The translations under genes and the position numbers were made by a program. A stretch of DNA of 58,712 nt from IMG/VR virus record IMGVR_UViG_3300049489_000482, positions 1-58,712 of that record, one strand, 5' to 3'. Of this stretch, positions 4,415 through 47,531 are shown in pieces. The notes under the pieces were generated by a model that was given only the letters and a program-made list of their open reading frames with translations, did no database searches and was not told where the DNA came from. The stretch comes from a virus (lineage: Duplodnaviria > Caudoviricetes). Each line of letters begins with the position of its first letter. The first letter of the stretch is position 1.

Positions 4415-4455
4415 ACGGTGTCCCCCTTACGCCGGGGCGTGCGGTGCGGCGAGGA

Positions 4456-4908
4456 TTATTGCGGCGCGGAAGGCGGCGCGATCGGGTCGATGTCGAGAAT
4501 CGGCTCGAGCGCGGCGATGTCGGCCGCCGAGATTCGAGCGTCGGCAGGGAGCGTGATCTTGTGGTTCAGGAACAGTTCCACGCTGGTCTGGCAGAGCGCG
4601 GTCATCTCCGCGTGAAAGGTCGCCTCGTTCTCCGGGAGGACGCGGAAGCGCTCGGGCGAATACGGCTTTCCCTTGTTCGGGTTCGGCTTGTCACCAACCG
4701 TCTCACGGTCATCCACGACCAGTGCGCCATGCCGCTTCACCGCAGCGTTCCTGGCCTTCATGTAGTCGTCCGCAGCCGTCTGCATCTCCCGCGCACATCG
4801 GGCGATGGCGTAGGCGTCCTTTGGAGCGAGCTCGATCTTTCGGAGCGCGTTGAATGCTGCGGCGAAACCGCCGTTGATGATGGTGCCGAGAGGAAGTGTG
4901 AGTTTCAT
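4456..4908 (-). CDS. Hypothetical phage protein (DUF1617-like)
   Basis: Start MKLTLPL; pattern 'AYAIAR...RNAAVKRHG...ISAADIAALEP' resembles a common tail-region family. Confidence 0.45.
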   Translation of the reverse strand: MKLTLPLGTIINGGFAAAFNALRKIELAPKDAYAIARCAREMQTAADDYMKARNAAVKRHGALVVDDRETVGDKPNPNKGKPYSPERFRVLPENEATFHAEMTALCQTSVELFLNHKITLPADARISAADIAALEPILDIDPIAPPSAPQ

Positions 4909-4991
4909 GGTGGTCGTTGTTTTCGTTGCGCTGTTTGTAGGTGCTGCCGTTCCGTTCGGCAAACCATTTCTCCACCAGCCTGTGGGCGGCT

Positions 4992-5687
4992 TTAGAAGCT
5001 GGCGTAGAACAGCCCCGAGCCGCTGTTGTAGAGGTCGGCCACTTCGGTGTCGGACAGCGCCCGGCCCCACACGCCGAACTCGTCGAGGACTCCGTTGGAC
5101 TGGTAGCCCCACGACTCGGTTCCAATGTAGAGCACCGGGCTTGAGGAAGCGTTCAGAACACCAATCGAGCCGGAGGTGTTCTCGACGCCGTTCAGGAACA
5201 GGCTGAGTTCGCTGGCGTCCTTGTCGTAGCGGACGACGATGTGATACCAGGTGTCATTGCTGAGTGTAGTCGCGTCAGACGCCGACTGCCAGCCGCCGTC
5301 GTAGTGCCACACCGTCAGCGTGCCGCCGGTCAGGCGCAGCGCCACGCCGCCGAACGCTTCCCACGACCATATAGCCTGATCCACGCTGTTGTCGGGTGTC
5401 TTGAACCACAGGCTGACCGTGTAGCTCGCATCGTTCATCGGGAACGCCGTTGTGCCACTCTCAGTCAGGTAGCCCGGCCCGGTGCCGGCGTCCAGTGCGT
5501 TGCCGTCCTTGCCGGTGACGTAGCCGACCGTCCCGGTTTCTGTCAGGTCAACATTGGTGGTGTGCGCGTCGGTGGCGTCGTCCAGCGAGTAGTAAGCCCA
5601 CAGGGTGTCCAAGAACCCACCGCCGCCACCGCCTCCGCCCGGTTGCCCAGCGGCCAGCAGTGCTGGATTTGAAAGGCCAAATTTCAC
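4992..5687 (-). CDS. LamG/concanavalin A-like lectin-domain virion protein
   Basis: YTVSLWFK, WYHIVVRYD, LFLNG, GVLDEFGVWGRALSDTEVADLYN motifs; GTG start overlaps the upstream stop. Confidence 0.8.
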   Translation of the reverse strand: MKFGLSNPALLAAGQPGGGGGGGGFLDTLWAYYSLDDATDAHTTNVDLTETGTVGYVTGKDGNALDAGTGPGYLTESGTTAFPMNDASYTVSLWFKTPDNSVDQAIWSWEAFGGVALRLTGGTLTVWHYDGGWQSASDATTLSNDTWYHIVVRYDKDASELSLFLNGVENTSGSIGVLNASSSPVLYIGTESWGYQSNGVLDEFGVWGRALSDTEVADLYNSGSGLFYASF

Positions 5688-25270: not shown

Positions 25271-25767
25271 GGTGTCTCTTGGTTGTTGGTTTCGAGTTTG
25301 GCCAGCGCGCTGACCAGCGTGCCCGCCATGTCTTTGACGACCGCCGCGAGTTCGCGGACGGAAAGCCGATGCGCGCCACGGTCCACCCTGGCCGGCACGA
25401 CGACGCGCAGGTCGTGCAGGCGGACGTACCTCGACGCGGTGTCCGTGGTGAGCAGCCCGGCCCCGCTCGGGAGTTCTCCGATGACATCGGCGACCAAGGT
25501 TGGCGGAACCAAGAAGTAGAATTGCGATGGCTTCCTCGTCCACGGCAGTTGCTCCCGGTATTGCATGACGCGCTTCTTTGCGTTGGCGCGGAAGTCCGCC
25601 TTGGTGACCTTGACCTCAATCTCGATCACGGTCCGTTTCGGCGTCACCCCGACGACGTCCGGGATGCCGATCCACCGAGCCGGTGCCCGCTCGCAGGCCA
25701 CGACGATGCTCTGCCGGGTGTAGCGCAGCCAGTTGCAAGCGCAGGCTTTAAGGTAGTTCGCCGTCAC
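25267..25767 (-). CDS. MmcB-like PD-(D/E)xK nuclease
   Basis: 'PDVVG...EIEVKVTKADF...FYFLVP...LPSGAGLL'. Confidence 0.7.
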   Translation of the reverse strand: MTANYLKACACNWLRYTRQSIVVACERAPARWIGIPDVVGVTPKRTVIEIEVKVTKADFRANAKKRVMQYREQLPWTRKPSQFYFLVPPTLVADVIGELPSGAGLLTTDTASRYVRLHDLRVVVPARVDRGAHRLSVRELAAVVKDMAGTLVSALAKLETNNQETP

Positions 25768-26936
25768 AAAAGTCCCGGTGTTGTGGCGCAACGCTGGCGC
25801 GCGAGATTGGCGTAGTCCGGGTTCAGTTCGACCAGGACCGCGTTGCGTCCAAGTTCGATGGCGACGCGGCCCGTCGTTCCGGATCCGCCGAACGGGTCCA
25901 GGACCGTGCCCATCCTTGGGCAGCCGGCCAGAATGCACGGCTTGACCAGCGCCTCCGGGAATGTCGCGAAGTGCGCCCCGCTGTAGGGTTGCGATGGGAT
26001 CGTCCAGACGCTCCGCTTGTTGCGCTCCGCAACGACATCCTTCACGGCCCCACTGAACGACGCGTTGGCCCGCGTGGTGTCCCGGTCCGCGATCTCCGCC
26101 TTCGGGTTCACACCGGGCCGGTGCATGTGTTCCATCGTCCGGCTCAGTGTTTGGTTTCCGGGCCATCCGCGCGCGTATCTGGCGTGGCTGTCTGGACTGC
26201 CCGGCTCGCGGATGGCGTCGGCGTCGTAGTGGTAGCGGGCCGACTTGCTCAGGATGAACAGGTATTCATGGGCCTTCGTGCAGCGATCCTCGACGCTCTC
26301 CGGCATCGGATTCGGCTTGTGCCAGATGATGTCCTGCCGCAGATACCAGCCATCCGCACGGAGCGCGAAGGCAACCATCCAAGGGATGCCGATCAGGTTT
26401 TTCGGCTTCAGGCCATAGATCAAAGCCCGCCCGCATCGGTTGCTGACTTCCTGGTTGCTTTGCCCGCCGCCGAGAGTGCTACCACCAAGGCCGCCGCTCG
26501 GCCCGCTATTGTAGGTATCCCCCAAGTTAAGCCACAGCGTGCCGTCGTCGCGCAGCACCCGGCGAACCTCGCGGAAGACGGCGACCATCGTGGCCACGAA
26601 TTCCTCGACGCTCGCCTCGAGTCCGATCTGCGCGTCGATTCGCGTGGCCCCGCACTTCTTGCATCGGCTCGCGAACGGCATCCCTCCGGCTCCCTCCTTG
26701 TATTCCGTCCCGCCGCCGTTGTTCCATTCGCCGAGCGTTGACTTGCTGCTCGTCTGGCTCCGGCCTTTGTGGTCGCACTCCGGGTCGCCGCCGACCCACT
26801 GACCCGTGCCGTAGTCGCGCAATCCCCAGTATGGCGGCGATGTCACGCAGCAATGCACCGCTTGGTCTGGAAACGTGGCGAGAACCTTACGGCAGTCGCC
26901 GACGTGGATTGTGACTTTGGGAATCGCTGTTTTCAT
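25764..26936 (-). CDS. N4-cytosine/N6-adenine DNA methyltransferase (beta-type order)
   Basis: TSPPY catalytic motif, HFATFP, DPFGGSGT SAM-binding motif. Confidence 0.9.
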   Translation of the reverse strand: MKTAIPKVTIHVGDCRKVLATFPDQAVHCCVTSPPYWGLRDYGTGQWVGGDPECDHKGRSQTSSKSTLGEWNNGGGTEYKEGAGGMPFASRCKKCGATRIDAQIGLEASVEEFVATMVAVFREVRRVLRDDGTLWLNLGDTYNSGPSGGLGGSTLGGGQSNQEVSNRCGRALIYGLKPKNLIGIPWMVAFALRADGWYLRQDIIWHKPNPMPESVEDRCTKAHEYLFILSKSARYHYDADAIREPGSPDSHARYARGWPGNQTLSRTMEHMHRPGVNPKAEIADRDTTRANASFSGAVKDVVAERNKRSVWTIPSQPYSGAHFATFPEALVKPCILAGCPRMGTVLDPFGGSGTTGRVAIELGRNAVLVELNPDYANLARQRCATTPGLL

Positions 26937-26984
26937 TCGTTTTTCGTTGCCGCCATACAACCCGCCCACGGGCGGGTATGCAAG

Positions 26985-29502: not shown

Positions 29503-30939
29503 TCAGAGGCGTTCCGGTTTGTGGCCGGCCTGCTCCATGCGGTCGAGCGCCACGGCGACGTATCGCGGGTCCAGTTCAATGGCTCGGGCGATGCGTTGGA
29601 GCTTGTCGGCGGCGACCATCGTGGCGCCGGCTCCGTGGAAGTTGTCGAGGACGATCTGGCCTGGCTTGGTGCTGTTCTCGATGGCGCGTGCGGCGAGTTC
29701 GACGGGCTTCTGCGTCGGGTGCAGATACTCCGCGGCGTTGTCGCGTCCGATTTCCCATGCGTCGGTTGGCTGCGGGTTCCCGATGGTGATGCGGTTGCCA
29801 GTCTTGACGCGGATGTGGCGCCACTTGCCCTTCGGCGGCTTGCTGCGGATGAATAGGTGCGCGTTGGCGCCGTTGGAGATGTGGAGTCCGCTGGCGACGG
29901 CGATGTGGATGTCTCCGCCGCTGGCCTCCGCGATCCGCCAGACGGTGGCCTGCGTCCGATCTCCGTGGAATGAGGCGCTTCCGTCGGCGCGCTCGCAGTA
30001 GAAGCATGGCTCCGTCTGCCAGTGATAGTCGGCGTGGCCGAGAACAAATCCCTCCTTTACCCATGTGATGTATTGCTTCTCGCGCAGCCCGACGGCGTCG
30101 AGGGCGTGTTCGAAGTCGCGCCGAGTGGCTGCCGCGTGCCAGATGTAGGCAGCTCCGTTCCTGGCGAGCCGCTCGACGGCCGGACGCATGGCGGGGATCA
30201 GGAAGTTTGCCAGCGCGTTGTGTGTCAGGTCGTCGTTTGCGATCTTCTTCTTCCCTTTGGCCTGGTAGCTCACGCCGTATGGCGGGTCGGTGTAGTAGAG
30301 CTGGACGGTTTCCGCGTCGAGCAGGCGCTCGTACAGCTTCGGGTCGGTGCTGTCTCCGCAGACGATGCGGTGCGGGCCGGCCCGCCACATGTCCCCGACC
30401 TTCACCGCCCACTTGGCGTGCAGTTCCTCGATGCGCTGTTCCGTGGCGGACGGCTGCGGTGTTTCGTTGGTGTCGCCGGTCGCCAGCAGCCGCTTCAGTT
30501 CCGCCTCGTCGAACCCGACGACGGTCATGTCCACATCCTCCTCGAGTAGCGCCTGCAGTTGCGACCGCAGACGTTCGTCGTCCCAGTCGCCTCCGTGCTT
30601 GTTGGCGGCGATCATGGCGGCGGTTTCCGTGGTCTTGTCCCATGTGACTTCGCGGTAGCTGAACCGTTCCCCTTCAAACTCGATGTGCCCAAGCGCCGTC
30701 GTTCCGGTGCGTGTCGGCTTCGTGAAGCGATGAGTGATCTCCGGTACGCTCTCCTTTGGGTTGAAGTTCTTCACGCGCTGATGCCCGCCCACGGCGTGCC
30801 CGGTCTTGGTGTTGAAGATGATGCCGCTCAGGTCGCCGAACCGGCGCATGGATTCCCGCAGCGCCTGCAGCTTTGCGTCGGTGATGACGCGCGGATTGTC
30901 GGGGTGCGGAGGCGGTAGTGCGGACTTCGTTGTTTTCAT
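29503..30939 (-). CDS. ParB-N domain fused to adenine DNA methyltransferase
   Basis: 'PDNPR...GGHQR' ParB domain; TDPPY, HPTQKP, DNFHGAGAT. Confidence 0.85.
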   Translation of the reverse strand: MKTTKSALPPPHPDNPRVITDAKLQALRESMRRFGDLSGIIFNTKTGHAVGGHQRVKNFNPKESVPEITHRFTKPTRTGTTALGHIEFEGERFSYREVTWDKTTETAAMIAANKHGGDWDDERLRSQLQALLEEDVDMTVVGFDEAELKRLLATGDTNETPQPSATEQRIEELHAKWAVKVGDMWRAGPHRIVCGDSTDPKLYERLLDAETVQLYYTDPPYGVSYQAKGKKKIANDDLTHNALANFLIPAMRPAVERLARNGAAYIWHAAATRRDFEHALDAVGLREKQYITWVKEGFVLGHADYHWQTEPCFYCERADGSASFHGDRTQATVWRIAEASGGDIHIAVASGLHISNGANAHLFIRSKPPKGKWRHIRVKTGNRITIGNPQPTDAWEIGRDNAAEYLHPTQKPVELAARAIENSTKPGQIVLDNFHGAGATMVAADKLQRIARAIELDPRYVAVALDRMEQAGHKPERL

Positions 30940-30977: not shown

Positions 30978-31387
30978 TCATTTCTCAGGCGCTGTCAATA
31001 TCCTCCTGCCGATCCACTCGATGACGTTCACGGTGACGCCGTTCCCGAGTTGACGTTTTCCCAAAGCAAAATTCCGGGGTTGAGTTCATTGGCGATCCTT
31101 ACGAATTGCAGGCAGAGGTTGCTCCGGTCGTCATCGAGGCTTCCGCGCAGACCGGCGACGCTGAAGCCCTGGCATGGTGTCCCGCCCGCGAGCACGTCCA
31201 CGCGCGGCAGGTTGTGCTTCCCCACGGTGGTCATGTCCCCCAGCAGCAGCGCATTCGGGAAGTGGCGACGCAGAATGTTCCGGCACTGCGGGTCGATCTC
31301 GACAGCGAACTGGCATTCCATCCCGGCCCGTTCAAGGCCGAGGTCGATGCCTCCGATGCCGCTGCAAAGTGTTCCAAACGTCAGCAC
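30978..31387 (-). pseudogene. C5-cytosine methyltransferase with internal deletion and frameshift
   Basis: Motifs I (CSGIGG), IV (PCQ) and VI (ENV) are joined directly to motif X (RQLGNGVTVNVIEWIGRRI) in another frame. Confidence 0.8.
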
Positions 31388-31782
31388 GCGGCCTCCGTCA
31401 GCGCGGCGAACTCCTGCTGCCCAATCGGCTTCGTGGGCGACCAGCCGTTGCGCTTCAGGAACGTGCGCGCCTTGCTCTCGTCCACCAGCCGGTATGAGAA
31501 GATCGTCCGCCCCCGGCTGCCGTCCGCCGTGCTGCGCCGGCTGCACTCGGTGCGCTTGAGGATTCCGACCTTGACCAGCGTGCGCCATGTCAGCCCGATG
31601 GCGTTCCGGTCGCCCGCCACCACGTCCCGCGTGTCGATCTGGTCCGGCCAGATGATGCGGTCGTTCTCGCCGACGATGTGGCCGAGAATGGCCACGGCGA
31701 TGTTTCGCGCGGTGCCCGGCTTCCACGTCAGCACCTTGATGGTGGCATCGTCCAGATGCGCGTCGATCTCCTGTGCGTTCAT
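31381..31782 (-). CDS. Hypothetical protein, possible winged helix
   Basis: Overlapping start/stop with neighbours. Confidence 0.5.
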   Translation of the reverse strand: MNAQEIDAHLDDATIKVLTWKPGTARNIAVAILGHIVGENDRIIWPDQIDTRDVVAGDRNAIGLTWRTLVKVGILKRTECSRRSTADGSRGRTIFSYRLVDESKARTFLKRNGWSPTKPIGQQEFAALTEAAC

Positions 31783-36969: not shown

Positions 36970-37383
36970 TTATTTGTTCGTCCAACAAATCAGCACGCCC
37001 TCAAACGGCAAGCCGTGTGTCGTCTCGAACCACTGTAGCATTTCGAGACGGTTAGCAAAGCCATCGGCGCGAGCGAATGCTTCCTCGTCGTGAAGTGCGA
37101 GGCCGCAGAGGGTGCATCCAAGCGCGCTGATTGTGATCGGCAGCGTTTTGGTGATGACCGCTTCCCGGAGCACTCGCTGTTTCGAGCGATATGGTTTGCC
37201 CGTCCATGAGCGCAGGCTGATACGGTCGCCCGGTTCCGGCATCCGTTTCGGCGTCGGGCGGACTGTTTGCAGCTTCTCGCCGCGCTCGACGAGTTCCGCA
37301 AACTGCGGCTTGAACATCCGCACAAAAGAGGATGAACCAGCCGCTTCAGCGATCGGATGGATTGCGTCTCTAGTGTTTTTCAT
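36970..37383 (-). CDS. ASCH/PUA-like protein in an ectopic gene cassette
   Basis: 'FKPQFAELVERGEKLQTVR...FARADGF'; start codon lies inside an attC. Confidence 0.7.
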   Translation of the reverse strand: MKNTRDAIHPIAEAAGSSSFVRMFKPQFAELVERGEKLQTVRPTPKRMPEPGDRISLRSWTGKPYRSKQRVLREAVITKTLPITISALGCTLCGLALHDEEAFARADGFANRLEMLQWFETTHGLPFEGVLICWTNK

Positions 37384-37422
37384 AGCATTGGCCCAGCCGT
37401 CGCTGAGTTTGGGTCGTTCGAT
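37331..37422 (+). mobile_element. Solitary attC site
   Basis: GATGAAC..CTTCAGCGA...TCGCTGAG.TTGGGTC.GTTCGAT; right arm almost identical to attC5 and attC6. Confidence 0.7.
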
Positions 37423-37424
37423 CT

Positions 37425-38414: not shown

Positions 38415-39166
38415 GTTGATGTCGGGTCCGTCCACGGTGTTCCGTCAAAGTTCTCGACGCCGGCCACGAACGGAACGGGCGCTTTCGGCTGTGCCTTCGG
38501 CGGTGTGTGCCCGCCCTTCGGTTCAAAGATGCCCTGGTATCCGGACGCCGTGGAGTGACGCAGTGCGGCCAGTGCTCTGGCGGTGCCAATTCCGCAGAGA
38601 AAACCGAGTTGCTTGCCGGCTGCCGTCGGCGTGATCGGCTGGCGCTTTTCCCGTCGGTGCTGCTGCCAGTCCTTCCACGCATCCTGCATCTCGGGAGTGT
38701 CCAGTTCAACGGGGAGCGGATAGTCCGGCGCCAACGGCGCCTTCTTCTTTCCGATCAGTTCTTCTGTTCCATTGTTCTTCTTTGTCGCGGGTTCCCCGTC
38801 GTCCGGGTTTCCCACGGACGGGTTTCCCACAGCACGGGAACCCGTATTGTGGCTCTCCGGCTCCTGCGGTGTGTCGTAGAATTCCCAAACGCACCGGGCG
38901 AACCTGTTCTCCGCGTCACGCTCCTTGTGCAGCGTCACGTACCGCTTCGCCATCAGTTCCTTGAGGGCGGAGTTCATGGCATCCCGGCCCTCTGTGCCCT
39001 GCTCTTCGAGCCACGTCTTGGTCACCTCCCACGATCCGGTGTTGCTCAGAACCATCGCGAGCAAGCCCCGCGCCTTGAAGCTCAGTGTCTTGTCGCGAAG
39101 CATGGCATTCGGAAGCACGGTGAAGTCCTTCGTGCAGTTGGATTTAAAGATGCGTTGAGGTTTCAT
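38411..39166 (-). CDS. Replication initiator (HTH, lambda O-like arrangement)
   Basis: 'FTVLPNAMLRDKTLSFKARGLL'; internal repeats; adjacent to a DnaC-like gene. Confidence 0.75.
   Translation of the reverse strand: MKPQRIFKSNCTKDFTVLPNAMLRDKTLSFKARGLLAMVLSNTGSWEVTKTWLEEQGTEGRDAMNSALKELMAKRYVTLHKERDAENRFARCVWEFYDTPQEPESHNTGSRAVGNPSVGNPDDGEPATKKNNGTEELIGKKKAPLAPDYPLPVELDTPEMQDAWKDWQQHRREKRQPITPTAAGKQLGFLCGIGTARALAALRHSTASGYQGIFEPKGGHTPPKAQPKAPVPFVAGVENFDGTPWTDPTST
38740..38850. other. Candidate replication origin (iterons plus adjacent pyrimidine/T-rich tract)
   Basis: CGGG(T/A)-type repeats at 38788, 38804, 38819 and 38835 inside the initiator gene. Confidence 0.55.
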
Positions 39167-39303
39167 GCGGGGAGGAAAAAACGACCGGACGGCGAGTTGA
39201 AAAACAGCGGTGAAGTTCCGCCCGCGCGTTTCCGCGCCACGCCGATCCGGTCGTCAGAGTTTGTTTCCTTCATACGTTCGGGTTTTTCAAGCCCGCAGTG
39301 GTG

Positions 39304-40416
39304 TCACCTTGCTCCGAGCAGTTCCTGTGAGTCAACGATTTCGTAATCGAGCGCCCGGTATACCTCCACGCGGCGCCTGCTGTGCTTCGCCATCAGCGGG
39401 TGCTGGTGATCGGTGAAGTCGTAGATTGTCCCGTGCTCTTTGCCGGCAAACGCGCGCAGCACGCGGCCCGTCCTCTGCTCCGTCTTGGTGCTGCTTCGCC
39501 CACCGCTGACGAGCACCAGCACGTTCGCCCTGGGAAGGTCCAGCCCCTCGTCGGCGAGTGACGTTGCCACGATGCACCACACGGTGCCCGCCTGGAACGC
39601 CTGGAGCGCCTCACGCCGCGCCTTCGCGCCCATCTTGCTGTGGCACAGCCTAGCGCCCGGCAGGCGCGCACACAGGGCATCCCCGTGCTCGATCTGGTTC
39701 ACGAGAACCAGCACGGCGTCGCCCCGATGCGCGAGCGCAGCGGCCACGGCCGCCTCGTTCCTGGCGCGGTTCTGGACGATGCCCATTTCGATGCACGCCT
39801 GCCACGCCACCTGTCCCCACAGTTGGCCGGGGTCGCCCCTCCAGAACCGTTGCCGCCAGCGCATGTCGGTGGCGATCTTGGCGTCAATCGGCTGTTGCAG
39901 GTCCGGGTCTGTCGCGTCGAGCATGACGACGCGGGCGTGCGCGAGACGCCTGGCCACCGCCTGCCGGTCGATGGTGAATCTGTCGGTGCCAAAGATGACA
40001 GCCATCGCCTCGTTCCGCTCCGGGTCTTCGCTGTACGGCGTCGCGGTGAATCCCCAGCGTGCGCCCGTGCAGGACTCGATCTGCGTGCGCCACGCGGGCG
40101 CTGGCGCGTGATGGCACTCATCCACGATCAGCAGCGCGCAGTCGCTCCAGTCGGTTGCGGCCGCCGCGCAGGCAACGCGCCGCTCGATGCGGCACGGGAA
40201 GTTGTCGAGTGCCTTATGCGCCTGCTGGCACTGCTCCTGTGTGTTCGCCATCCAACCGACGCGCACGGGATGCTCGCGACCTCGGGCGGTGACCACGGAC
40301 TGGATTGCCGCCGCTGCGATGACCGTCTTGCCGCTTCCGGCCGGCGCGATGCAGATGGCCCGACGCCGGGTGCGTATCCACTCGACTGCGCTCTTCTGGT
40401 AGAGTTCGAGGGTCAT
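39304..40416 (-). CDS. SF2 (DExH) helicase
   Basis: APAGSGKT, DECHH, TAT, EGLDLP, QRTGR. Confidence 0.9.
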   Translation of the reverse strand: MTLELYQKSAVEWIRTRRRAICIAPAGSGKTVIAAAAIQSVVTARGREHPVRVGWMANTQEQCQQAHKALDNFPCRIERRVACAAAATDWSDCALLIVDECHHAPAPAWRTQIESCTGARWGFTATPYSEDPERNEAMAVIFGTDRFTIDRQAVARRLAHARVVMLDATDPDLQQPIDAKIATDMRWRQRFWRGDPGQLWGQVAWQACIEMGIVQNRARNEAAVAAALAHRGDAVLVLVNQIEHGDALCARLPGARLCHSKMGAKARREALQAFQAGTVWCIVATSLADEGLDLPRANVLVLVSGGRSSTKTEQRTGRVLRAFAGKEHGTIYDFTDHQHPLMAKHSRRRVEVYRALDYEIVDSQELLGAR

Positions 40417-41363
40417 GCGTCGAGCGGGGATTTAACACTCAACGCATCGGCATGGCAGTAGCGCTCAGTGGTTGTGATCTGAGCGTGGCCCATCGCTTTG
40501 GCAAGTGCCTTGATGTTTGTCCCGCGATTCAGGCAGTGCGTGGCGTAACTGTGCCGCAGTTCGTGCGGAACAGCCATGATGCCAGTCTCTCGGCGAGCGC
40601 GTTTTACGGCGCGCTGAATCGTCGCAGTCAGGAGATGCCATCGAACCATCCGCCTCGGATCATGTGGGTCTGGTGACGGGTATTTCAGTGGAGTGAACCA
40701 TGCCCACTGCCATAAGCATTCAAACTCGGGATACTTGCGTGCCAGTTGATGCGGCAACTGGATTGGGATTTGGTCGCGCACGTCCCGCAACCACGTTTGC
40801 CGCGCCGCTTCCATCTGCTGCTCAATCCGACCAACCAGAGCGCACGGCATTTTGACGACACGGTCATGTCCACACTTCGGCTCGCGAATGGTGATCTGCT
40901 GCTGTCCGATGTCGATGTCCTTAATCCGAAGCGCAACTGCTTCACCCACGCGAAGCCCGCAGCCGTAAAGTAGATGCGTCACTAGGTTTGCAGGGTATCC
41001 TCCAGTGTCGCTCACCGCTGCCAGAAGCGTCCTTACTTCTTCCACCGGAAGCGCACGGCGCATGTGCTCTGGGCGTTGCGCCCGTAACGCGTCAATGTCC
41101 TTAAGTTTCACGCCGAGGCAGTCTCTGTAAAAGAACAAGATAGCATTGAACGCCTGGTTTTGTGTCGCTGCGGAAACGTCGCGAGCAGCAAGTTCTGTCA
41201 GGAACCGCTCCATCTTCTGCTCGCTGGTGAGCACGGACGGCATCTGGAATATGGCAGTGATGTAGCGCTTGATCCATTGTTTGTAATTGTCCTCTGTCGC
41301 CAGTGATTTGTGCTGTCTCCGCATCACATCCACCGCTCTCTGGATTGCCTGCTCCTTATTCAT
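40413..41363 (-). CDS. intI: Integron integrase (tyrosine recombinase)
   Basis: SAATQNQAFNAILFFY, GLR, HELRHSYATH, GH..TT..Y, plus the IntI-specific insert LPHQLARKYP..WQWAWF..PDP..RWH. Confidence 0.9.
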   Translation of the reverse strand: MNKEQAIQRAVDVMRRQHKSLATEDNYKQWIKRYITAIFQMPSVLTSEQKMERFLTELAARDVSAATQNQAFNAILFFYRDCLGVKLKDIDALRAQRPEHMRRALPVEEVRTLLAAVSDTGGYPANLVTHLLYGCGLRVGEAVALRIKDIDIGQQQITIREPKCGHDRVVKMPCALVGRIEQQMEAARQTWLRDVRDQIPIQLPHQLARKYPEFECLWQWAWFTPLKYPSPDPHDPRRMVRWHLLTATIQRAVKRARRETGIMAVPHELRHSYATHCLNRGTNIKALAKAMGHAQITTTERYCHADALSVKSPLDA

Positions 41364-41402
41364 AAGCGAACACTTCCTTTGGCTTAAACACCGTTCCACA
41401 TC
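41364..41402 (+). mobile_element. attI-like site (crossover G|TTCCAC at 41393)
   Basis: Abuts the intI start; GTTCCACATC is the complement of the first cassette end GATGTGGAAC (41853). Confidence 0.65.
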
Positions 41403-41403
41403 T

Positions 41404-41850
41404 TCAATAGTCGCCCTCGTCGTTGTAGTCGTCCCAGTCCAGTTTGGCGTCTTTCCACTGCGCCGCCCCGCCGAGGTCATCGAGCAGCTTGCGCGCTTTT
41501 CGGGCGCGGTCTATCGCGGCTTGGCTCTTGATTGCTTCTTCCTCCAGTGACTTCTGGTAGCGGTCTATGACTTCCGCTGCCGAGCCTTTGCAGTGGCCGT
41601 ATCGCCGTTCCCAATCCACCACGGGCATCGTTTTCATTTCCTCGACTTCGTTGGCGAGGCGTTGGAGTTCGCCAGCGCTTTTGATGCAGGCGTTTTTTAG
41701 CGGCGCGAGTCCGGCGAGGATTTTCTCCATGCCGAGGATTGCGGTTGCGGCGCTTTCGCCGTCCTTCACTTCGACCGTCAGGTCGTAGCGGACGTGCTCG
41801 TAGTTGCCGAGGTTGTAGAGTCTGCCGATTGTGATTTTGGTTACGTTCAT
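41404..41850 (-). CDS. Cassette 1 hypothetical protein
   Basis: 148 aa; fills cassette 1. Confidence 0.75.
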   Translation of the reverse strand: MNVTKITIGRLYNLGNYEHVRYDLTVEVKDGESAATAILGMEKILAGLAPLKNACIKSAGELQRLANEVEEMKTMPVVDWERRYGHCKGSAAEVIDRYQKSLEEEAIKSQAAIDRARKARKLLDDLGGAAQWKDAKLDWDDYNDEGDY

Positions 41851-41855
41851 TCGAT

Positions 41856-41944
41856 GTGGAACAATTCAGTGCAGGCAACGGCGGGTTGCGCTGCGGGTTT
41901 ATTTCGAGTCGTCAGGTCCGCCGTGCCTGACTTCACCGTTGGAG
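41856..41944 (+). mobile_element. attC1
   Basis: GTGGAAC..GTGCAGGCA/TGCCTGAC..GTTGGAG. Confidence 0.85.
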
Positions 41945-42246
41945 GACTCCATGCCGGCGTTCGCGGTGTGCTGTTTCAGAGCCACCGGCACGGAGTCCAG
42001 ATTCAGTTTCTTTTGTGAGGCCGCACCGACCGCCCAGTCGCGGACTTGCAGCCAGATTTCTTGCTTCGATTTTTCCGTTTCGATTTTGGCTTCGATCCAT
42101 GCCCAGTCGCGCAGCTCGGCGAGCATCCACGCGAGTTCTTCCAGTCTCTTTGGGTTCGCCCGTCCTCCAACCATTCCCTGATGCGAATCGCCACCGCGCC
42201 GCGCGCGTGGCAATTCGGGAGTCGGTTGAGCGGTGGCGATTCGCAT
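41899..42246 (-). CDS. Cassette 2 hypothetical protein
   Basis: Starts in attC2, ends in attC1. Confidence 0.55.
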   Translation of the reverse strand: MRIATAQPTPELPRARRGGDSHQGMVGGRANPKRLEELAWMLAELRDWAWIEAKIETEKSKQEIWLQVRDWAVGAASQKKLNLDSVPVALKQHTANAGMESSNGEVRHGGPDDSK

Positions 42247-42262
42247 AGGTCAGTCGTTGTCC
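42165..42262 (+). mobile_element. attC2
   Basis: CTCCAAC..ATGCGAATCGCCACCGC/GCGGTGGCGATTCGCAT..GTTGTCC. Confidence 0.85.
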
Positions 42263-42543
42263 GTCTTTGCCGCCCACCGATCCACCGCGCGATGGTTGCT
42301 CCAGCATGGATGCAGTTCGACCGCGCGACGCATCGCGTCGGGGCTGTTTGCCCATCCCATCTGCATCGGCTTTCCCTCTTCGTCGTCGCACCATATTTCG
42401 TAGCGTTGTCCACGGTCGCCAACCGCCGGCAAAGACGGACAACCAGCCGGTGCAGCGAATGAGCCGCGAGGCTTTTTCCTGCATTTAGACCCGTCATTCC
42501 AACACTCCGCGAACTCCGGGGCGCAATCGTCACAGTGGCTCAT
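42250..42543 (-). CDS. Cassette 3 hypothetical protein
   Basis: Starts in attC3. Confidence 0.55.
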   Translation of the reverse strand: MSHCDDCAPEFAECWNDGSKCRKKPRGSFAAPAGCPSLPAVGDRGQRYEIWCDDEEGKPMQMGWANSPDAMRRAVELHPCWSNHRAVDRWAAKTDND

Positions 42544-42564
42544 CGCTGACCTCCATCGTTAGGC
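42437..42564 (+). mobile_element. attC3
   Basis: GGACAAC..GTGCAGCGAATGAGCC/GGCTCATCGCTGAC..GTTAGGC. Confidence 0.85.
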
Positions 42565-42822
42565 CGCATCGTATTCGGCCAAGATTGTTTCTGTGATCCT
42601 GACTGGCACATACTCGACTCCTGGGTCGGGCTTTGGCTTCCGAGAGATGGCCTCCATGACCTCGGCCCGGTCAAAGTATTGCCCCACGTCGCAGACCCAC
42701 TTTCTGTCCGCGAATTTCCGCAGCATCCAGTATTGGTCGGTTTTGGTTTCCGGCGGCCTAACCACGGCGCTGCTGCCAACAGCCGCCCCGCTTGGCACGC
42801 TCGGAGTCACAGGTTCTTTCAT
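42559..42822 (-). CDS. Cassette 4 hypothetical protein
   Basis: RBS and ATG lie in the attC4 loop; stop lies in the R' box of attC3. Confidence 0.65.
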   Translation of the reverse strand: MKEPVTPSVPSGAAVGSSAVVRPPETKTDQYWMLRKFADRKWVCDVGQYFDRAEVMEAISRKPKPDPGVEYVPVRITETILAEYDAA

Positions 42823-42882
42823 GGTTTCCTTTCCGCTCTACCCATGCCGTCGGGCGGCTGTGGCAGAGCTTGGTCGTTAGGA
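42756..42882 (+). mobile_element. attC4
   Basis: GCCTAAC..CTGCCAACAGCCGCCC/GGGCGGCTGTGGCAG..GTTAGGA. Confidence 0.85.
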
Positions 42883-43092
42883 GACATTTTCTTCGGCCAC
42901 GTAAATGTTGTGTGCATTGTCTTTCCGGGTCACACACACTTGGTCATGCCATCCTTTGTGCGGATAGTTGGCGCACACTATCCCTTCGCCTCTGTATTCG
43001 GCGGTGTCCACCATTACTCGGTCGCCGATCTTGCGTCCCGGCCTGATTGCTTTTGCGAGCGCGTATAGCGCGTTTGATATTAGTGTTCTCAT
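42877..43092 (-). CDS. Cassette 5 small protein (SH3/KOW-like)
   Basis: 'KIGDRVMV...GEGIV'. Confidence 0.6.
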   Translation of the reverse strand: MRTLISNALYALAKAIRPGRKIGDRVMVDTAEYRGEGIVCANYPHKGWHDQVCVTRKDNAHNIYVAEENVS

Positions 43093-43101
43093 TCGTTTGT
43101 T

Positions 43102-43125
43102 GTCGCTGAGCTTGGGTCGTTAGGC
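43102..43125 (+). mobile_element. attC5, right arm only
   Basis: GTCGCTGAGCTTGGGTCGTTAGGC with no left arm. Confidence 0.7.
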
Positions 43126-43338
43126 CACATACGTCGCCCATCGTTTATGCTGACCGCATCCTTCACCGAGCAGCCGCTCCACCGATTCGCGGCAGTCGGC
43201 GGCGTTGTGGATGAGCAGCGGGCCGTTGTCGTAGATTTCGCCGGTGCTGGGATGTTGCCACTCAGCGCGTGGTTCGCACCAGCACTGCGCGGAGTGCTCA
43301 TGTTCTCTTTCATCGTTTAGAGGTATGACGTTGACCAT
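43120..43338 (-). CDS. Cassette 6 His/Cys-rich small protein
   Basis: 'VIPLND..EH...CWCEP...IHNAADCRE'. Confidence 0.65.
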   Translation of the reverse strand: MVNVIPLNDEREHEHSAQCWCEPRAEWQHPSTGEIYDNGPLLIHNAADCRESVERLLGEGCGQHKRWATYVA

Positions 43339-43341
43339 GTG

Positions 43342-43434
43342 GCCTAACCATGCGCTCCAGCGAACCCGGCGGGGGCGTTGCGGTTGCAATCGTTGCCTCC
43401 CGTGCGCCGGGTCGCTGAGCTTGGGTCGTTCGCC
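43342..43434 (+). mobile_element. attC6
   Basis: GCCTAAC..CTCCAGCGAACCCGGCG/CGCCGGGTCGCTGAG..GTTCGCC. Confidence 0.9.
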
Positions 43435-43778
43435 AGATGCAGCAGCGGGAGCGTCTGCCCAGCCAGACCATCGGTCGAGTCGCCGAGGTGTTGGCACATC
43501 CCGTCCGTCAGCCAGATGTGGCTCACATTCCCGTCGGCGTGTGTTGTCTTCACGCTCGGCTTGAGCGTCGGCTTGAGCGTCGAGCCGTTCCACGTCCACG
43601 CATTTGCTGCGTCGCGGCTTCCGTGGGTGATGACTGGCAGCAGAATTGGGAACTCGTAGCCGTGCGGCTGGAAGCGCAGATAGTCGCGACCGTTGCGATG
43701 CTCCAAACACGAAACTGGCGAACAAGGCGCTGCACCCGCAACTGCCGCTTCGCCTGTCCGTTCAGAGTCAGATTTCAT
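43344..43778 (-). CDS. Cassette 7 DUF6527-like protein
   Basis: 'WTWNGSTLKPTLKPSV..HIWLTDG..LGDST..LAGQT'; tail reads through attC6. Confidence 0.7.
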   Translation of the reverse strand: MKSDSERTGEAAVAGAAPCSPVSCLEHRNGRDYLRFQPHGYEFPILLPVITHGSRDAANAWTWNGSTLKPTLKPSVKTTHADGNVSHIWLTDGMCQHLGDSTDGLAGQTLPLLHLANDPSSATRRTGGNDCNRNAPAGFAGAHG

Positions 43779-43844
43779 TTCGATTCGTTTCTTTGCGCTC
43801 GACCCGTCCCGCCAGCGGCAGTGGGGTGAGCTTGGCTGTTCGCC
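43717..43844 (+). mobile_element. attC7
   Basis: GGCGAAC..CTGCACCC..ACTGCCGCT/AGCGGCAGT.GGGTGAG..GTTCGCC. Confidence 0.8.
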
Positions 43845-44404
43845 AAACGAATGACGCGCCCCGGTAGTCCCGAGCGTTCGAGGGCCAGCGTGTTCGTTTC
43901 GTCGTAGGAGATGAGCGCGGACGGTCCGCCAGCGTTTGCCCCTGCCCGCGTCCCGTCCACATGGTAGAAGTAGAGCCGCCCCCACAAGAACAGGATCGCG
44001 TGCGCCTTCTTCCAGACGTGCTCCACCCAATCCGCTGTTTCCGTCCGTGCAAAGATCAGCGCGGTTGCGTTGCCGTGCTCCGCGCACCGTGCCAGCCAGC
44101 GCCCCGTCTCGCGGCCATACGGAGGATTGCACCAGACGCGACCACTCCACGGCAGCCGCAGCCCATTGTCGCGCACCGTGTAGTGCTTCGATGCAGTCGG
44201 CCACGGCCGATTGATCGGGCTGCACGGGTCGAGGTCGAAAGCCCCGAGAGCGGTCAGGATCTCGGGCGGCGTCAGCCACTCGTCTTTGCCCATCCGGTGC
44301 GAGTGATGCCCCCCGATGCCGCGACCAGAATTGGCGAACCAGGCGGTGGACTCAACAGCCATGAGCGGCGGAGTTTCGAGGGTAGCGGAGTCGTTTGCGC
44401 TCAT
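43775..44404 (-). CDS. Cassette 8 phage Dam-like N6-adenine methyltransferase
   Basis: DEWLTP, FDLDPC, WCNPPYG. Confidence 0.85.
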   Translation of the reverse strand: MSANDSATLETPPLMAVESTAWFANSGRGIGGHHSHRMGKDEWLTPPEILTALGAFDLDPCSPINRPWPTASKHYTVRDNGLRLPWSGRVWCNPPYGRETGRWLARCAEHGNATALIFARTETADWVEHVWKKAHAILFLWGRLYFYHVDGTRAGANAGGPSALISYDETNTLALERSGLPGRVIRLANSQAHPTAAGGTGRAQRNESK

Positions 44405-44410
44405 GGTGGT
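44333..44410 (+). mobile_element. attC8 with degenerate right arm
   Basis: TTGGCGAAC complements the cassette start at 43838; inner stem CCATGAGCG/CGCTCATGG. Confidence 0.55.
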
Positions 44411-44418
44411 GCCATCGC

Positions 44419-44583
44419 TTATGCGTTCGAGCGCCGGGCGACGCGCTTGGGTTTGCGTTTCGTTTTTGCCCACCGAGCGGCCACTGCCGCCCGTGCCTGT
44501 TCGGAACTTCGCGCCTTGGCCGCGCCCGTCCCGGCTTTGCCGCCGAGTCTGCCGAGCGCGACCGCCGCTGGATTTTTAGTCAT
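44419..44583 (-). CDS. Small basic 'AVALGRLGG..ARW' protein
   Basis: MTKNPAAVALGRLGGKA...AARW. Confidence 0.7.
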   Translation of the reverse strand: MTKNPAAVALGRLGGKAGTGAAKARSSEQARAAVAARWAKTKRKPKRVARRSNA

Positions 44584-44866
44584 TGCTCGTGTCCTCCACC
44601 TCTCGAACGTAGTCCTTGCGGTCTTGGGCCGTGCCTTTGGCTTGGCCGGGGTCGTTGTCGCCGGGCAGAATGAGCCGGTATTTAGACTCATCGCGCCAAA
44701 GTTGGTAGCGGGCCTTGTCTGCCTCATCGTAGTCCGTCCATGCCCCGCGAAATTGCCAAGAGACCGTCTTTAGCTCCTCGTCGTATTGCCGCACAAACAG
44801 CCGGTAGTGAGTCGCGGTGTCGTAGGTCTGTTGCTCGCCTTTGTGAGTTGTCGCTGTGTTGGTCAT
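44576..44866 (-). CDS. Hypothetical protein
   Basis: First ORF after the promoter. Confidence 0.55.
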   Translation of the reverse strand: MTNTATTHKGEQQTYDTATHYRLFVRQYDEELKTVSWQFRGAWTDYDEADKARYQLWRDESKYRLILPGDNDPGQAKGTAQDRKDYVREVEDTSND

Positions 44867-44907
44867 TTGCTTTTGGTGTCTCGGCTTACTGGGCCTCAAC
44901 TGCAAAC

Positions 44908-44936
44908 ACTCTACGCAAGCGGTTGCGTATATGCAA
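44908..44936 (-). promoter_or_regulatory. Sigma70-like promoter TTGCAT-N17-TAGAGT with an overlapping palindrome
   Basis: Intergenic; TACGCAA-N4-TTGCGTA at 44912-44929. Confidence 0.65.
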
Positions 44937-44965
44937 GAGTTATTTTCACATTGCTTCCGATCTGC

Positions 44966-46627
44966 TTAACTTGGGTCGGTAGGCACCAGTGAGAGAGCCT
45001 TGCGTGCCTCCTCACGTCCGGCTCTGTTAGGACCGCTACCCGCCGATGTGATCGTCAGTCTGTGCTTTGCCCTGGTCATCGCCACGTAAAACAGCCGCCG
45101 ATCTTCCTCGCTCGGCTCTTTGGCTGCGGCGGCGCTCTCGTCGCACTCGGGCAAGACCACGTTGTCGAACTCAAGACCTTTCGCTCCGTGCATCGTCATG
45201 ATGCGGATGCCGTCCATGTCGCCCGCCATCACGCGCTTCGTTTCCTCATTGCAGATGCTGATGAGCAGGTCGCCCATTGTCGCACGCGCCGGCAGTGTGC
45301 CCGCGATTTCCTCCACGATGTCGGCGCTGGCCGCCGTGCATCCGTGTGCCCTCACCACTCGGGCGGCGTAGTGTGGCGTGAACTGGCCACCCTCGACGCA
45401 AATTCCGCTCGCGCCGGCCAGCGTGGTGCCGCCCTGGATTGCAGCCAATCGAGCCTCGTTGATCTGTGCCGGCGTCCTGCCGCACTGGCGCAGGTAGCTG
45501 GCGGTGATCTCCGTGTTGCTCGGGTTCGCCAGAACCGCCAGCAGCGTTTTGGCTTTGCGCCAGTCCTCCGGGAAGACGCGATCCTTGCGGATGGCCAGCG
45601 GATAACCGTGCTCCGCAAGTAGCGCGGCGAACCGTTGCACCTGTGCGTTGGTGCGGACCAGGATGGCGGTTGCTGACGATTCGTCCTCCAGTTCCTGGCT
45701 CAGGTGGCCCATGAGTTCGGTGTCCTCGGCGCCGCGCGTCGCGTAGTAGGAGACCACCACCGCTCCGCCTTCGTGCTCCGCAGTCATGTTCTGCTGCGCC
45801 CGCTCCTTGTTCTGCTCGATCACTTTCCGCGCCGCGTCGCAAATGGCTTTCCGGCAGCGGTAGTTCCGTTCGAGCCTGATGACGTTCCACTCCGGGCTGT
45901 TGAAGTGCTCCATGAACAACTCCACCTTGGCTCCACGGAATCGGTAGATGCTCTGGTCGGGGTCGCCGACCACGAACTTGGTCTTGGTGGTGATGGCGTC
46001 GTAAATCTCCCAGTCCAGCGCGCTCGAATCCTGCGCCTCGTCCACGAGCAGGTGCCTGACCGGAACAAGTCCTACCGGAGCGATCTTGATCAGGTCGCGT
46101 CCCACGTCGAGCAGCGTGTCAAAGTCGAGCATGCCGGTGCGCGCCATCGTCGCCCGGAACTCCGCCGCCACAAGTTCCGCCGCCGTCGGCGGATTGCTAC
46201 GCGCCGGGTAGTGCCGTAGCGCGTCCGTCAGCGCGGTCTTGGTGCCCTTGTATCCGAGGCGCTTCTTGACGCCGTCCAACAGTTCCTCCGCAGCGTCCTC
46301 GTCGATAATTGTCGGCGGGACGAAGATGCCGACCAGACACCGCGCGGCCTCTTTGGTGAGCAGTCGGAAGAGCCAGCCGTGAAGCGTGCCCACGTAGCCG
46401 AGCCGCTGCGCTGCGGCCTCGTTGCGGCCCGCCGCGAGGCGCTGAACCATCTCGCCGGCTGCGGCGTTGGTGAACGTGATCGCCACGATGCCGGCCGGGT
46501 CCTCGCCGCTGTCGAGCAGGTGGTTGATGCGCTCGACGAGCACCATCGTCTTTCCGGAGCCTGGCGTGGCGACGACGAGCGTGTTGCGGTGCGGTGTGGT
46601 AACGGCGAGTTTCTGTTGATCGTTCAT
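44966..46627 (-). CDS. UvrD/PcrA-like SF1 helicase
   Basis: ATPGSGKT, TFTNAAA, VDEAQD, VGDPDQSIYRFRGA, NYR, HGAKGLEF, FYVAMTRAK. Confidence 0.92.
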   Translation of the reverse strand: MNDQQKLAVTTPHRNTLVVATPGSGKTMVLVERINHLLDSGEDPAGIVAITFTNAAAGEMVQRLAAGRNEAAAQRLGYVGTLHGWLFRLLTKEAARCLVGIFVPPTIIDEDAAEELLDGVKKRLGYKGTKTALTDALRHYPARSNPPTAAELVAAEFRATMARTGMLDFDTLLDVGRDLIKIAPVGLVPVRHLLVDEAQDSSALDWEIYDAITTKTKFVVGDPDQSIYRFRGAKVELFMEHFNSPEWNVIRLERNYRCRKAICDAARKVIEQNKERAQQNMTAEHEGGAVVVSYYATRGAEDTELMGHLSQELEDESSATAILVRTNAQVQRFAALLAEHGYPLAIRKDRVFPEDWRKAKTLLAVLANPSNTEITASYLRQCGRTPAQINEARLAAIQGGTTLAGASGICVEGGQFTPHYAARVVRAHGCTAASADIVEEIAGTLPARATMGDLLISICNEETKRVMAGDMDGIRIMTMHGAKGLEFDNVVLPECDESAAAAKEPSEEDRRLFYVAMTRAKHRLTITSAGSGPNRAGREEARKALSLVPTDPS

Positions 46628-46674
46628 TCGTTTTTCGTTTTGTTCTTTGGAGTGTGCCGCCCGTGGGCGGGTTG

Positions 46675-46914
46675 TCAATTTGGAACCGGCTCCACCGTGA
46701 TCATCTTGGTCTGCAACCCGTATTCCTGCGCTTGGACGAGCGCGTCGATTGGCCGCGAGAACTTCGTGGCGTCCTTGTCGCCGACCATTTGCCAGACCTT
46801 GCCTCGGGCGTTCTGCACGAACTGGACGGCGTAGCCTCGGTAGCGGATGACGTATTGCGGTGCCGGCAATGTCGTTTCCGTTGTGTGTTGGTTGATCGGG
46901 TTGTATTTGCTCAC
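46675..46914 (-). CDS. Hypothetical protein
   Basis: GTG overlaps the upstream stop. Confidence 0.45.
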   Translation of the reverse strand: MSKYNPINQHTTETTLPAPQYVIRYRGYAVQFVQNARGKVWQMVGDKDATKFSRPIDALVQAQEYGLQTKMITVEPVPN

Positions 46915-47531
46915 AAGATGTTCCTCCCGGCTTCCAGCATGATGTTGAGGCAGACGCCGCACCGCAGTGATTCACCATCCCTTCTGGTAGTCCACTGGCC
47001 GTGCGGACGGCGGCCGCACTCCGCGGCGCTGGTCTTGCCTTTGTTCGGCACCAGATGCCGCACGGCGTCGTTGGTGTCGGTTTTCCACGTCATCGGCCGC
47101 ACCCGGCGCATCTCCCTCACGGTTGGCGCCGCCAACGCGAGCCACTGCGGTGGCTCCGCCTCGGCTCGGTGCCATGCCTGCCTGCTACGCTGGTTGTAGG
47201 GTCCGCCCGGTTGCAGGGCGGACATGATGCTCCAGACGCGGGCGTACGGCGCGCCCTTGTGTTCCTGGCCTCGGGTCGCGTGAACCGCGGCCTTGAAGTT
47301 CGAGTAGTCGATTCGGGACGCGATTTCGGTGACGAACGCCACCGCCGCCGCGTGGCTGCACACGATCCGGTATCGGTAGTCGCCGGACGGCGTCTCGATC
47401 CATCTCGTTCCGCGCAGCGCCTTGGTGCGCGCGGCGTTCTCGATGTCGGCGCGCTCGCGTGCGCGCACTTGGAACTCGCCGGGGTGCCGCTCGACGATGC
47501 TGAAAAAACCCGCTGTTGATGCCATCCACAT
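46911..47531 (-). CDS. Conserved hypothetical phage protein
   Basis: 'MW....GFFSIV..VRAR..DYRYR..IDYSNFK' pattern. Confidence 0.65.
   Translation of the reverse strand: MWMASTAGFFSIVERHPGEFQVRARERADIENAARTKALRGTRWIETPSGDYRYRIVCSHAAAVAFVTEIASRIDYSNFKAAVHATRGQEHKGAPYARVWSIMSALQPGGPYNQRSRQAWHRAEAEPPQWLALAAPTVREMRRVRPMTWKTDTNDAVRHLVPNKGKTSAAECGRRPHGQWTTRRDGESLRCGVCLNIMLEAGRNIL

Follow-up and report, generated by a model that had tools for sequence, protein, structure and literature searches.

Integrons are seen as bacterial devices in which promoterless genes, each standing before its own attC site, are read outward from one promoter. The locus compared with them here lies in the window, by which is meant the whole 58,712-nt stretch of the IMG/VR virus record IMGVR_UViG_3300049489_000482, and is probably a phage-borne integron with reversed cassettes, in which the attC site forms a 5′ leader that holds or adjoins the start codon of the gene (Table 1).

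Classical integrons, namely those of class 1, sedentary chromosomal integrons and the chromosomal arrays of Verrucomicrobiota (L020, L022 and L033), share with this locus an integrase (IntI) with an extra domain, an attI site beside intI, attC sites with R″, L″, L′ and R′ boxes, 5- and 6-nt spacers and extrahelical bases, circularly permuted cassette ends, and an intI gene that is divergent from the attC top strand. In the textbook layout the gene lies on the attC top strand, the attC lies 3′ of the gene and the cassette promoter (Pc) is at the attI end, whereas in the window the genes are on the attC bottom strand, the attC precedes the gene and often contains its start, and the array, located inside a phage operon, is read towards intI and leaves no room for a Pc-type outward promoter. 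The locus would belong to a phage clade of reversed-cassette integrons, a variant of the known integron system.

A survey of 10,705 phage genomes yielded three complete integrons, one In0 and 17 clusters of attC sites lacking integron integrases (CALINs), and its main text derives the complete integrons and the In0 from host or plasmid integrons (Vibrio, P1 class 1 and Shewanella) (Qi et al., 2023; PMC9892861). The same main text resembles the present case in reporting attC arrays in phages with DNA methyltransferases as recurrent cargo, and mentions neither reversed gene polarity nor attC-embedded starts nor a phage IntI clade; a literature search, which covered the main text of this survey, found no paper describing reversed cassette polarity or attC-embedded starts. 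The “atypical” integrons of the Treponema type (PMC3607928) are alike in that intI and the cassette genes are co-directional; there, however, intI points towards attI and lies upstream of the cassettes, whereas in the window intI (41363 to 40413) points away from attI and follows the cassette genes downstream. Translational control by attC hairpins in class 1 arrays (Carvalho et al., 2024, PMC11511950; review PMC8876359) is comparable insofar as the attC structure in the mRNA and upstream translation shape expression of the next cassette, but concerns a non-coding top-strand attC located 3′ of the gene, whereas the window has a bottom-strand 5′ leader with a start in its loop.

The window is a phage contig. 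It comprises the whole IMG/VR record, which is linear with a CheckV completeness of 69%, and all of its large open reading frames (ORFs) are on the − strand; according to PHROGs and Pfam, these include genes for a terminase, a major head protein, a scaffold, a protease, a RepO-like initiator, a DnaC-like loader, helicases and several DNA methyltransferases. The integron is placed in the early/replication operon of this phage.

IntI matches TIGR02249 with 254.3 bits (E 1.8e-75) over profile positions 3-313 of 315 and aligns end to end with IntI1, with no gap across the IntI-specific extra domain. The IntI-specific segment LP..L..KYP...W.W.W.FP...DP and all of the catalytic residues (R138, K163, H267, R270, H293 and Y302) are present, so that the protein combines the integron type, the extra domain and the R-K-H-R-H-Y set. 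The conserved stretch just upstream of intI is the predicted attI with a GTT crossover: its GTTCCAC, 30 nt from the intI ATG, exactly complements the R″ box GTGGAAC of the first attC, S1, and the motif xxxxAAC-(A/G)NTG(A/T)TT..GC..GTTCG.TTAT occurs at this place in six of six loci (the window and the related phage-type loci L003-L007), the order xxxxAAC, TGATTAAGC-like block and GTTCGTTTAT-like block being kept in the five related viral loci. Because intI is only 30 nt from the first cassette boundary, the array is not a CALIN, in which no integrase is found nearby.

Table 1. Positions in the window of the integrase gene, the predicted attI, the attC sites and the cassettes (model R1, covariance model described in the text; aa, amino acids).
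Feature	Positions	Strand	Description
intI	40413-41363	−	Integron-type tyrosine recombinase, 316 aa from M40 (ATG 41363) of the 355-aa ORF 40413-41480
Predicted attI	41364-41399		Crossover after the G of GTTCCAC at 41393-41399
attC S0 (solitary)	37331-37423	+	Model R1 35.4 bits, E 8e-8
attC S1	41856-41944	+	Model R1 34.2 bits
attC S2	42165-42262	+	Model R1 19.4 bits
attC S3	42437-42564	+	Model R1 39.9 bits
attC S4	42756-42882	+	Model R1 32 bits
Half-site S5	43102-43125		Right arm only, without left arm and without TCCTAAC; fold z −0.33; no model R1 match
attC S6	43342-43434	+	Model R1 66 bits, E 3.4e-17
attC S7	43717-43844	+	Model R1 36 bits
attC S8	44333-44431		Outer stem degenerate, partial fold; no model R1 match
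Cassette C1	41394-41938	−	ORF 41404-41850 (148 aa) and S1
Cassette C2	41939-42256	−	ORF 41899-42246 (115 aa) and S2; last 12 aa encoded by S1
Cassette C3	42257-42558	−	ORF 42250-42543 (97 aa) and S3; stop TGA in S2 spacer
Cassette C4	42559-42876	−	ORF 42559-42822 (87 aa) and S4; ATG in loop, TAA the last cassette triplet
Cassette C5	42877-43119	−	ORF 42877-43092 (71 aa) and half-site S5
Cassette C6	43120-43428	−	ORF 43120-43338 (72 aa, phrog_2864) and S6
Cassette C7	43429-43838	−	DUF6527 ORF 43344-43778 (144 aa) and S7; ATG in loop, 27-aa tail read from S6
Cassette C8	43839-44425	−	Phage Dam methyltransferase ORF 43775-44404 and degenerate S8; 22-aa tail from S7
Decayed distal end	44419-44984	−	54-aa basic ORF 44419-44583; 96-aa ORF 44576-44866

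Six of the array sites (S1, S2, S3, S4, S6 and S7) fold as imperfect hairpins, with fold z of −2.4 to −3.7 for S1, S2, S4 and S7. Their + strand carries the 7-nt R″ box, a 5-nt spacer, 3 bp, an extra base, 6 bp, an extra A and the stem, and the opposite side carries a 6-7-nt spacer and GTTRRRY; the R″/L″/L′/R′ boxes, the RYYYAAC...GTTRRRY ends and extrahelical bases on the R″-L″ arm that characterize attC hairpins are thus all found. Six sites match this 7-5-3-[bulge]-6-[bulge] geometry, with 14 of 14 pairs formed or a single additional bulge, and ten mononucleotide shuffles give 0-2 weaker matches. In the class 1 control (L002), the attCs of aadA2 and orfF show the same arrangement, 7-5-3-[C]-6-[A], on the coding strand of their cassettes, divergent from intI1; the attCs of the window share this class 1 geometry, their top strand being the + strand. 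A covariance model (model R1), which was built from ten canonical attCs of Verrucomicrobiota chromosomal arrays only, matches seven sites of the window at E < 0.01, all on the + strand (S6, S3, S7, S1, S4 and S2, and the solitary S0), the six array sites having E from 3e-17 to 7e-3. The model also finds 26 sites in seven related loci (L003-L007, L013 and L025), all on the strand opposite intI, and the opposite strand of the sites that it matches gives no match at E up to 1. The polarity of the attCs relative to intI and attI is inferred to be standard, and the bottom strand that folds and recombines would be the − strand. Two further candidate attCs, S9 and S10, were rejected as decayed.

The R′ box of each site and the R″ box of the next are exact complements in seven of the eight neighbouring pairs, which is the mark of circular permutation of cassettes. 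Correspondingly, the first 6 nt exactly complement the R″ box of the own attC in every cassette but C5, for which the complement was not found. A perfect 17-nt inverted repeat (42256-42272 and 42427-42443) surrounds C3 and adds 10 bp to the canonical R′/R″ box pairing that the cassette has when excised.

The array contains at least eight cassettes (41394-44425). Homologues or family matches are found on the − strand for seven of the eight cassette ORFs (C1, C2, C3, C4, C6, C7 and C8), and intI and all phage genes are on the same strand. Because the attC top strand is the + strand and the genes are on the − strand, every attC forms the 5′ leader of the gene in its cassette: on the coding strand each cassette reads attC first and then the gene, and the array is read towards attI and intI. 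The C5 ORF has nothing in Pfam, NCBIfam or PHROGs, the databases to which its homologue search was confined, and a set of 50,697 phage records contains no match to C1 or C4.

The sequence-only reading had placed five start codons inside attC sites, and all five are found there: ATG 42246-42244 in the L′ arm of S2, ATG 42543-42541, which follows GGAGG at 6 nt, in the L′ arm of S3, ATG 42822-42820, which had been given a ribosome-binding site, in the S4 loop and preceded by AAGGAAACC, ATG 43778-43776 in the S7 loop, and ATG 44404-44402 inside S8. The gene ends likewise agree with what it had described. Each of the three TAA stops (42559, 42877 and 43120) coincides with the TTA of an R′ box (GTTAGGC, GTTAGGA and GTTAGGC, respectively) and so is the last triplet of its own cassette; the three read-through tails that it had quoted all start with N, which is the AAC of the R′ box; and the stop of Dam (TGA 43777-43775) shares an ATGA with the start codon of DUF6527 in the S7 loop. 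Its inference that each cassette has its own start signal in its attC is supported for these in-site starts, and “each” is too strong for C1 and C6. The 120 listed of the 244 C1 homologues are mostly 140-150 aa long, which makes ATG 41850, 5 nt outside R″, the start, and homology of C6 runs from residue 1-2, which puts its start at ATG 43338, 3 nt outside R″.

The association between attC sites and starts extends to the related loci. In 33 model R1 sites of the window and the seven related phage-type loci, an in-site start was defined as the first in-frame ATG of an ORF of at least 60 codons falling within the site. On the bottom strand, 22 of the 33 sites hold such an ATG, and 25 have it in the site or no more than 30 nt after it; the corresponding in-site number on the top strand is four. 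Random placement on the gene strand gives 6.83 ± 2.36, with a maximum of 15, and none of 500 trials reaches 22. A cruder measure that counts any in-site ATG (20 of 28 versus a random mean of 14.6) was non-discriminating and was replaced by the first-ATG criterion. Most of the in-site starts lie at 0.3-0.5 of the site length, that is, in the loop, where 14 of 18 read ATGA (background 0.29, p 2.6e-5); the preceding 12 nt have an A+T content of 58% versus 39.5%, and stops in the other two frames occur within a few bases. The upstream gene ends either at the TAA within RYYTAA/C, the slash marking the cassette boundary, or in the loop, often as ATGA.

Conservation among homologues breaks at the R boxes, as the sequence-only reading had proposed to check: it starts at R″ in C2, C3 and C4 and ends at R′ in Dam and C2. 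For C4, four homologues were found besides the window's own, all of them conserved from the VVR encoded by R″; three full-length ones share the ATG, their next 20 residues, encoded by the S4 loop and arm, vary by substitutions and in-frame indels, and they are nearly identical from VVRPPETK onward, VVR being the R″ box. C3 has 130 homologous proteins, whose widespread core of about 60 aa (residues 37/40-92) begins right after R″. The 34 attC-encoded residues of the C3 leader, HCDDCAPEFAECWNDGSKCRK followed by SFAAPAG, behave differently from this core, in that 12 unrelated proteins match the leader only (residues 1-37), at the N-terminus in seven and inside or at the end in five. Four cysteines (C-x2-C-x6-C-x6-C), a W and an F are invariant across these 12 proteins, compared as protein sequences, with conservative replacements. 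The four-cysteine peptide is encoded by the S3 loop (42465-42540, − strand) and is possibly a small zinc-binding tag of one attC type. The back-translated pattern of the leader gave no match in viral or metagenome contigs, and the related-locus search with C3 returned only core homologues.

For C2, 20 homologous proteins were found and 18 homologues aligned (alignment A3). The core stretches from GRANPKRL to ...ES[SL]N, whose last N is the AAC of the R′ box (AA/C crossover). Homologues in which this end is retained part immediately behind the N into at least seven different tails; the C2 leader MRIATAQ... also heads proteins with other cores. The expectation that a swap of neighbours changes C-terminal tails is supported by these homologues, whose tails differ exactly after the crossover. 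Dam (PF05869 and phrog_111; alternative starts 44362 and 44293) is matched in 574 phage records, of which the 25 listed start at residue 63/64 (23 rows) or 33 (two rows), and homology to non-cassette phage Dam stops at residue 210 in 19 of these 25. Because the codon of residue 210 abuts the S7 R′ box, the last 22 residues are attC-encoded. The PF20137 and phrog_3362 matches of C7 stop near the cassette boundary at residue 117, and phage homology of this DUF6527 protein is within residues 21-129, mostly ending at 110-115. The earlier inference is supported by these homologue boundaries, which point to a start in the attC or a few bases from it.

IntI-based searches returned 11 viral loci. Those examined are in phage early or recombination modules and have no cargo in common with the window, and no cassette ORF of the window was found in the 11 loci (tblastn, E 1e-2), which is read as cargo turnover. 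The nearest genomic IntIs, with 48-53% identity, are almost all in metagenome-assembled genomes (MAGs) of Verrucomicrobiota. The chromosomal arrays L020, L022 and L033 of this phylum have the textbook layout: none of their 16 sites holds a start, top-strand ORFs start 4-17 nt after R′ in 13 of the 16, and the Pfam matches (DUF1375, SUKH-1 and PP-binding) are on the top strand. In the IntI tree, six viral IntIs of reversed arrays form a clade (98/97) that stands beside (82/97) eight Verrucomicrobiota IntIs, including those of three canonical arrays; L013 and L025 have no resolved placement. L025 is a 15.7-kb contig in a Myxococcota MAG (labelled Polyangiaceae), in which a phage-type array (3062-5385) lies beside an IntI of this group; its layout is reversed, the bottom strand encoding a Pol-beta-type nucleotidyltransferase, and it may be a phage contig binned by mistake.

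One metagenome run, from freshwater sediment and used here as contigs, contains the DNA of the window and may be its source; the phage may accordingly be an uncultured one of freshwater sediment. In this likely source run, the bin containing S6 has a summed contig depth of 2661 versus about 37 beside it, roughly 70 times that of the phage, and loose contig ends accumulate at 43342 and 43430, that is, exactly at the S6 R boxes. The loose ends and the high depth mean that S6-type attCs border many other sequences in the community, and may reflect either a large pool of cassettes there or a host array that has attCs of this type. Six apparent “joints” in the contigs of this run have sides of 21-29 nt, probably come from other attC-bearing contigs and are not counted as excision events.

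In the mechanism that we propose, the array is probably transcribed as one message from an upstream phage promoter and would run into intI. The attC loop would supply an ATGA start that is rich in A/T and has stops of the other frames on its flanks, and the 3′ arm and R″ box would encode a short, fast-evolving N-terminal leader. A gene would end either with TAA as the last triplet of its own cassette or by reading through to the loop of the next attC, in which case termination would be coupled to the next start. A cassette that moves would bring its own start module, and the gene before which it is placed would receive a new tail and a new coupling partner. A scan of 39000-47500 found no − strand terminator inside the array.

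Several observations weigh against the assignment of the locus as a reversed integron with start-bearing attCs. The starts of C1 and C6 are outside R″, and alternative starts exist at or past R″ in C2 (M25), C3 (TTG at L38) and Dam (M61). Shine-Dalgarno-like motifs before the loop ATGs are not enriched (4 of 18 versus a background of 0.19), and a scan of 39000-47500 with a sigma-70 consensus, which may not fit this host, found no promoter of this type. Some DUF6527 alignments overrun the boundary by 6-12 residues. Not all units are still mobile, given the decay of S5, S8 and the distal end, and the 254.3 bits of IntI are below the NCBIfam curated cut-off of 265. Finally, S6 is a point at which the Logan contigs from the likely source run break, which means that the 58.7-kb IMG/VR contig spans a repeat there, although the depth agrees on either side of the break (37.1 and 34.8). 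Some of these points would suit attCs that are recombination sites and untranslated 5′ leaders only, with true starts at or after R″ and with in-site ATGs and open frames as by-products of GC-rich sequence. The positions of the C1 and C6 starts, the TTG of C3 and the ATG of C2, the absence of Shine-Dalgarno enrichment and the conserved Dam core, which begins just past M61, would all be expected under such a scheme, which is nevertheless unlikely, because in C4 and C7 no alternative start precedes the conserved core, residues 21-32 of C4 are conserved upstream of its next Met, leaders keep the ATG and the frame through in-frame indels, the C3 leader keeps four Cys, W and F across 12 unrelated proteins, and both in-site starts (22 of 33 versus 6.8 expected) and ATGA (14 of 18) are in excess.

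It is still less probable that the array is a fossil with immobile cassettes, whose IntI has been reused, for example as a lysogeny integrase that targets attC or attI of a host integron. Such a history would account for the degenerate sites, the score of IntI under the curated cut-off, the fact that IntI is the sole integrase match among the 56 ORFs scanned and the much greater abundance of S6-type attC than of the phage in the sample; against it stand the exact complements in seven of eight R′/R″ pairs, C2 homologues with different neighbours exactly at the crossover, the wholly different cargo of related phages, the conserved attI and the solitary cassette elsewhere in the genome, and a role in lysogeny and a role in cassette movement are not mutually exclusive. 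That strand and polarity are misassigned, the locus being an ordinary integron with its real cassette genes on the + strand, is barely credible and is already contradicted by the present data. Long + strand ORFs do suit some cassettes (e.g., 43437-43829 and 42593-42880), but no family matches the + ORFs whereas seven of the eight − ORFs have homologues, the model of bacterial attCs scores only the + strand at these sites, and a single-box attI is at the intI end. The reversed phage integron with attCs as start-bearing leaders is therefore preferred.

If so, the phage has a complete platform of integrase, attI and array that is built the opposite way round, as it is in its relatives, and phages may own a private cassette pool, with methyltransferases as recurrent cargo, rather than only borrowed host pieces. 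A cassette-borne start together with stops in the other frames offers a testable answer to the question of how an operon tolerates random cassette order, and integron-finding pipelines that assume top-strand genes will mis-annotate reversed arrays. The sister IntI clades, one with canonical and one with reversed arrays, form a natural system for studying how cassettes are made. A broader possibility, which we put forward tentatively and regard as doubtful, is that phages of Verrucomicrobiota-like hosts run their own integron with a separate pool of reversed cassettes, in which one hairpin would be a DNA recombination site, a portable stop-start junction of the mRNA for any cassette order, and coding sequence for exchangeable protein ends, including the four-cysteine leader. 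Under this broader reading the strand that recombines, being the non-template one in the early operon, could be exposed by transcription at the time of infection, and cassette shuffling, if this is true, would be coupled to infection.

At the distal end, up to 44984, only relics are present, with folds that are not significant and without a model R1 match. An R″-like CTCGAAC (44602-44608) complements the S8 R′ box, and a right-arm-like repeat is at 44964-44984 (repeat family D1). The 54-aa ORF (...GRLGGKAGTGAAKARS...ARWAK...) crosses the S8 R′ box and stops in the S8 spacer; the unit of this ORF after the lone R″-like box is probably a cassette with a decayed attC.

The solitary attC S0 lies directly after the stop of the DnaC-like gene, 3 kb beyond intI. 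An ATGA in its loop starts an ORF on the − strand (MKNTRD..., about 37384 to 36970), and its left junction GTTCGTC complements R″ with one mismatch. The unit resembles one reversed cassette that has entered a secondary site.

The phage has four DNA methyltransferase genes (25764-26969, 29503-30939, 31028-31726 and 43775-44404), two of which are fused to ParB-like domains; the last of the four, Dam, is the only one inside a cassette, and C5-type methyltransferases are cassettes in the related loci L003 and L005. Elsewhere on the − strand, 11033-15697 encodes a 1554-aa protein with PHROG matches to a minor head/virion protein and a NUDIX hydrolase and with a C-terminal ADP-ribosyltransferase-like stretch (E 1.8e-4).

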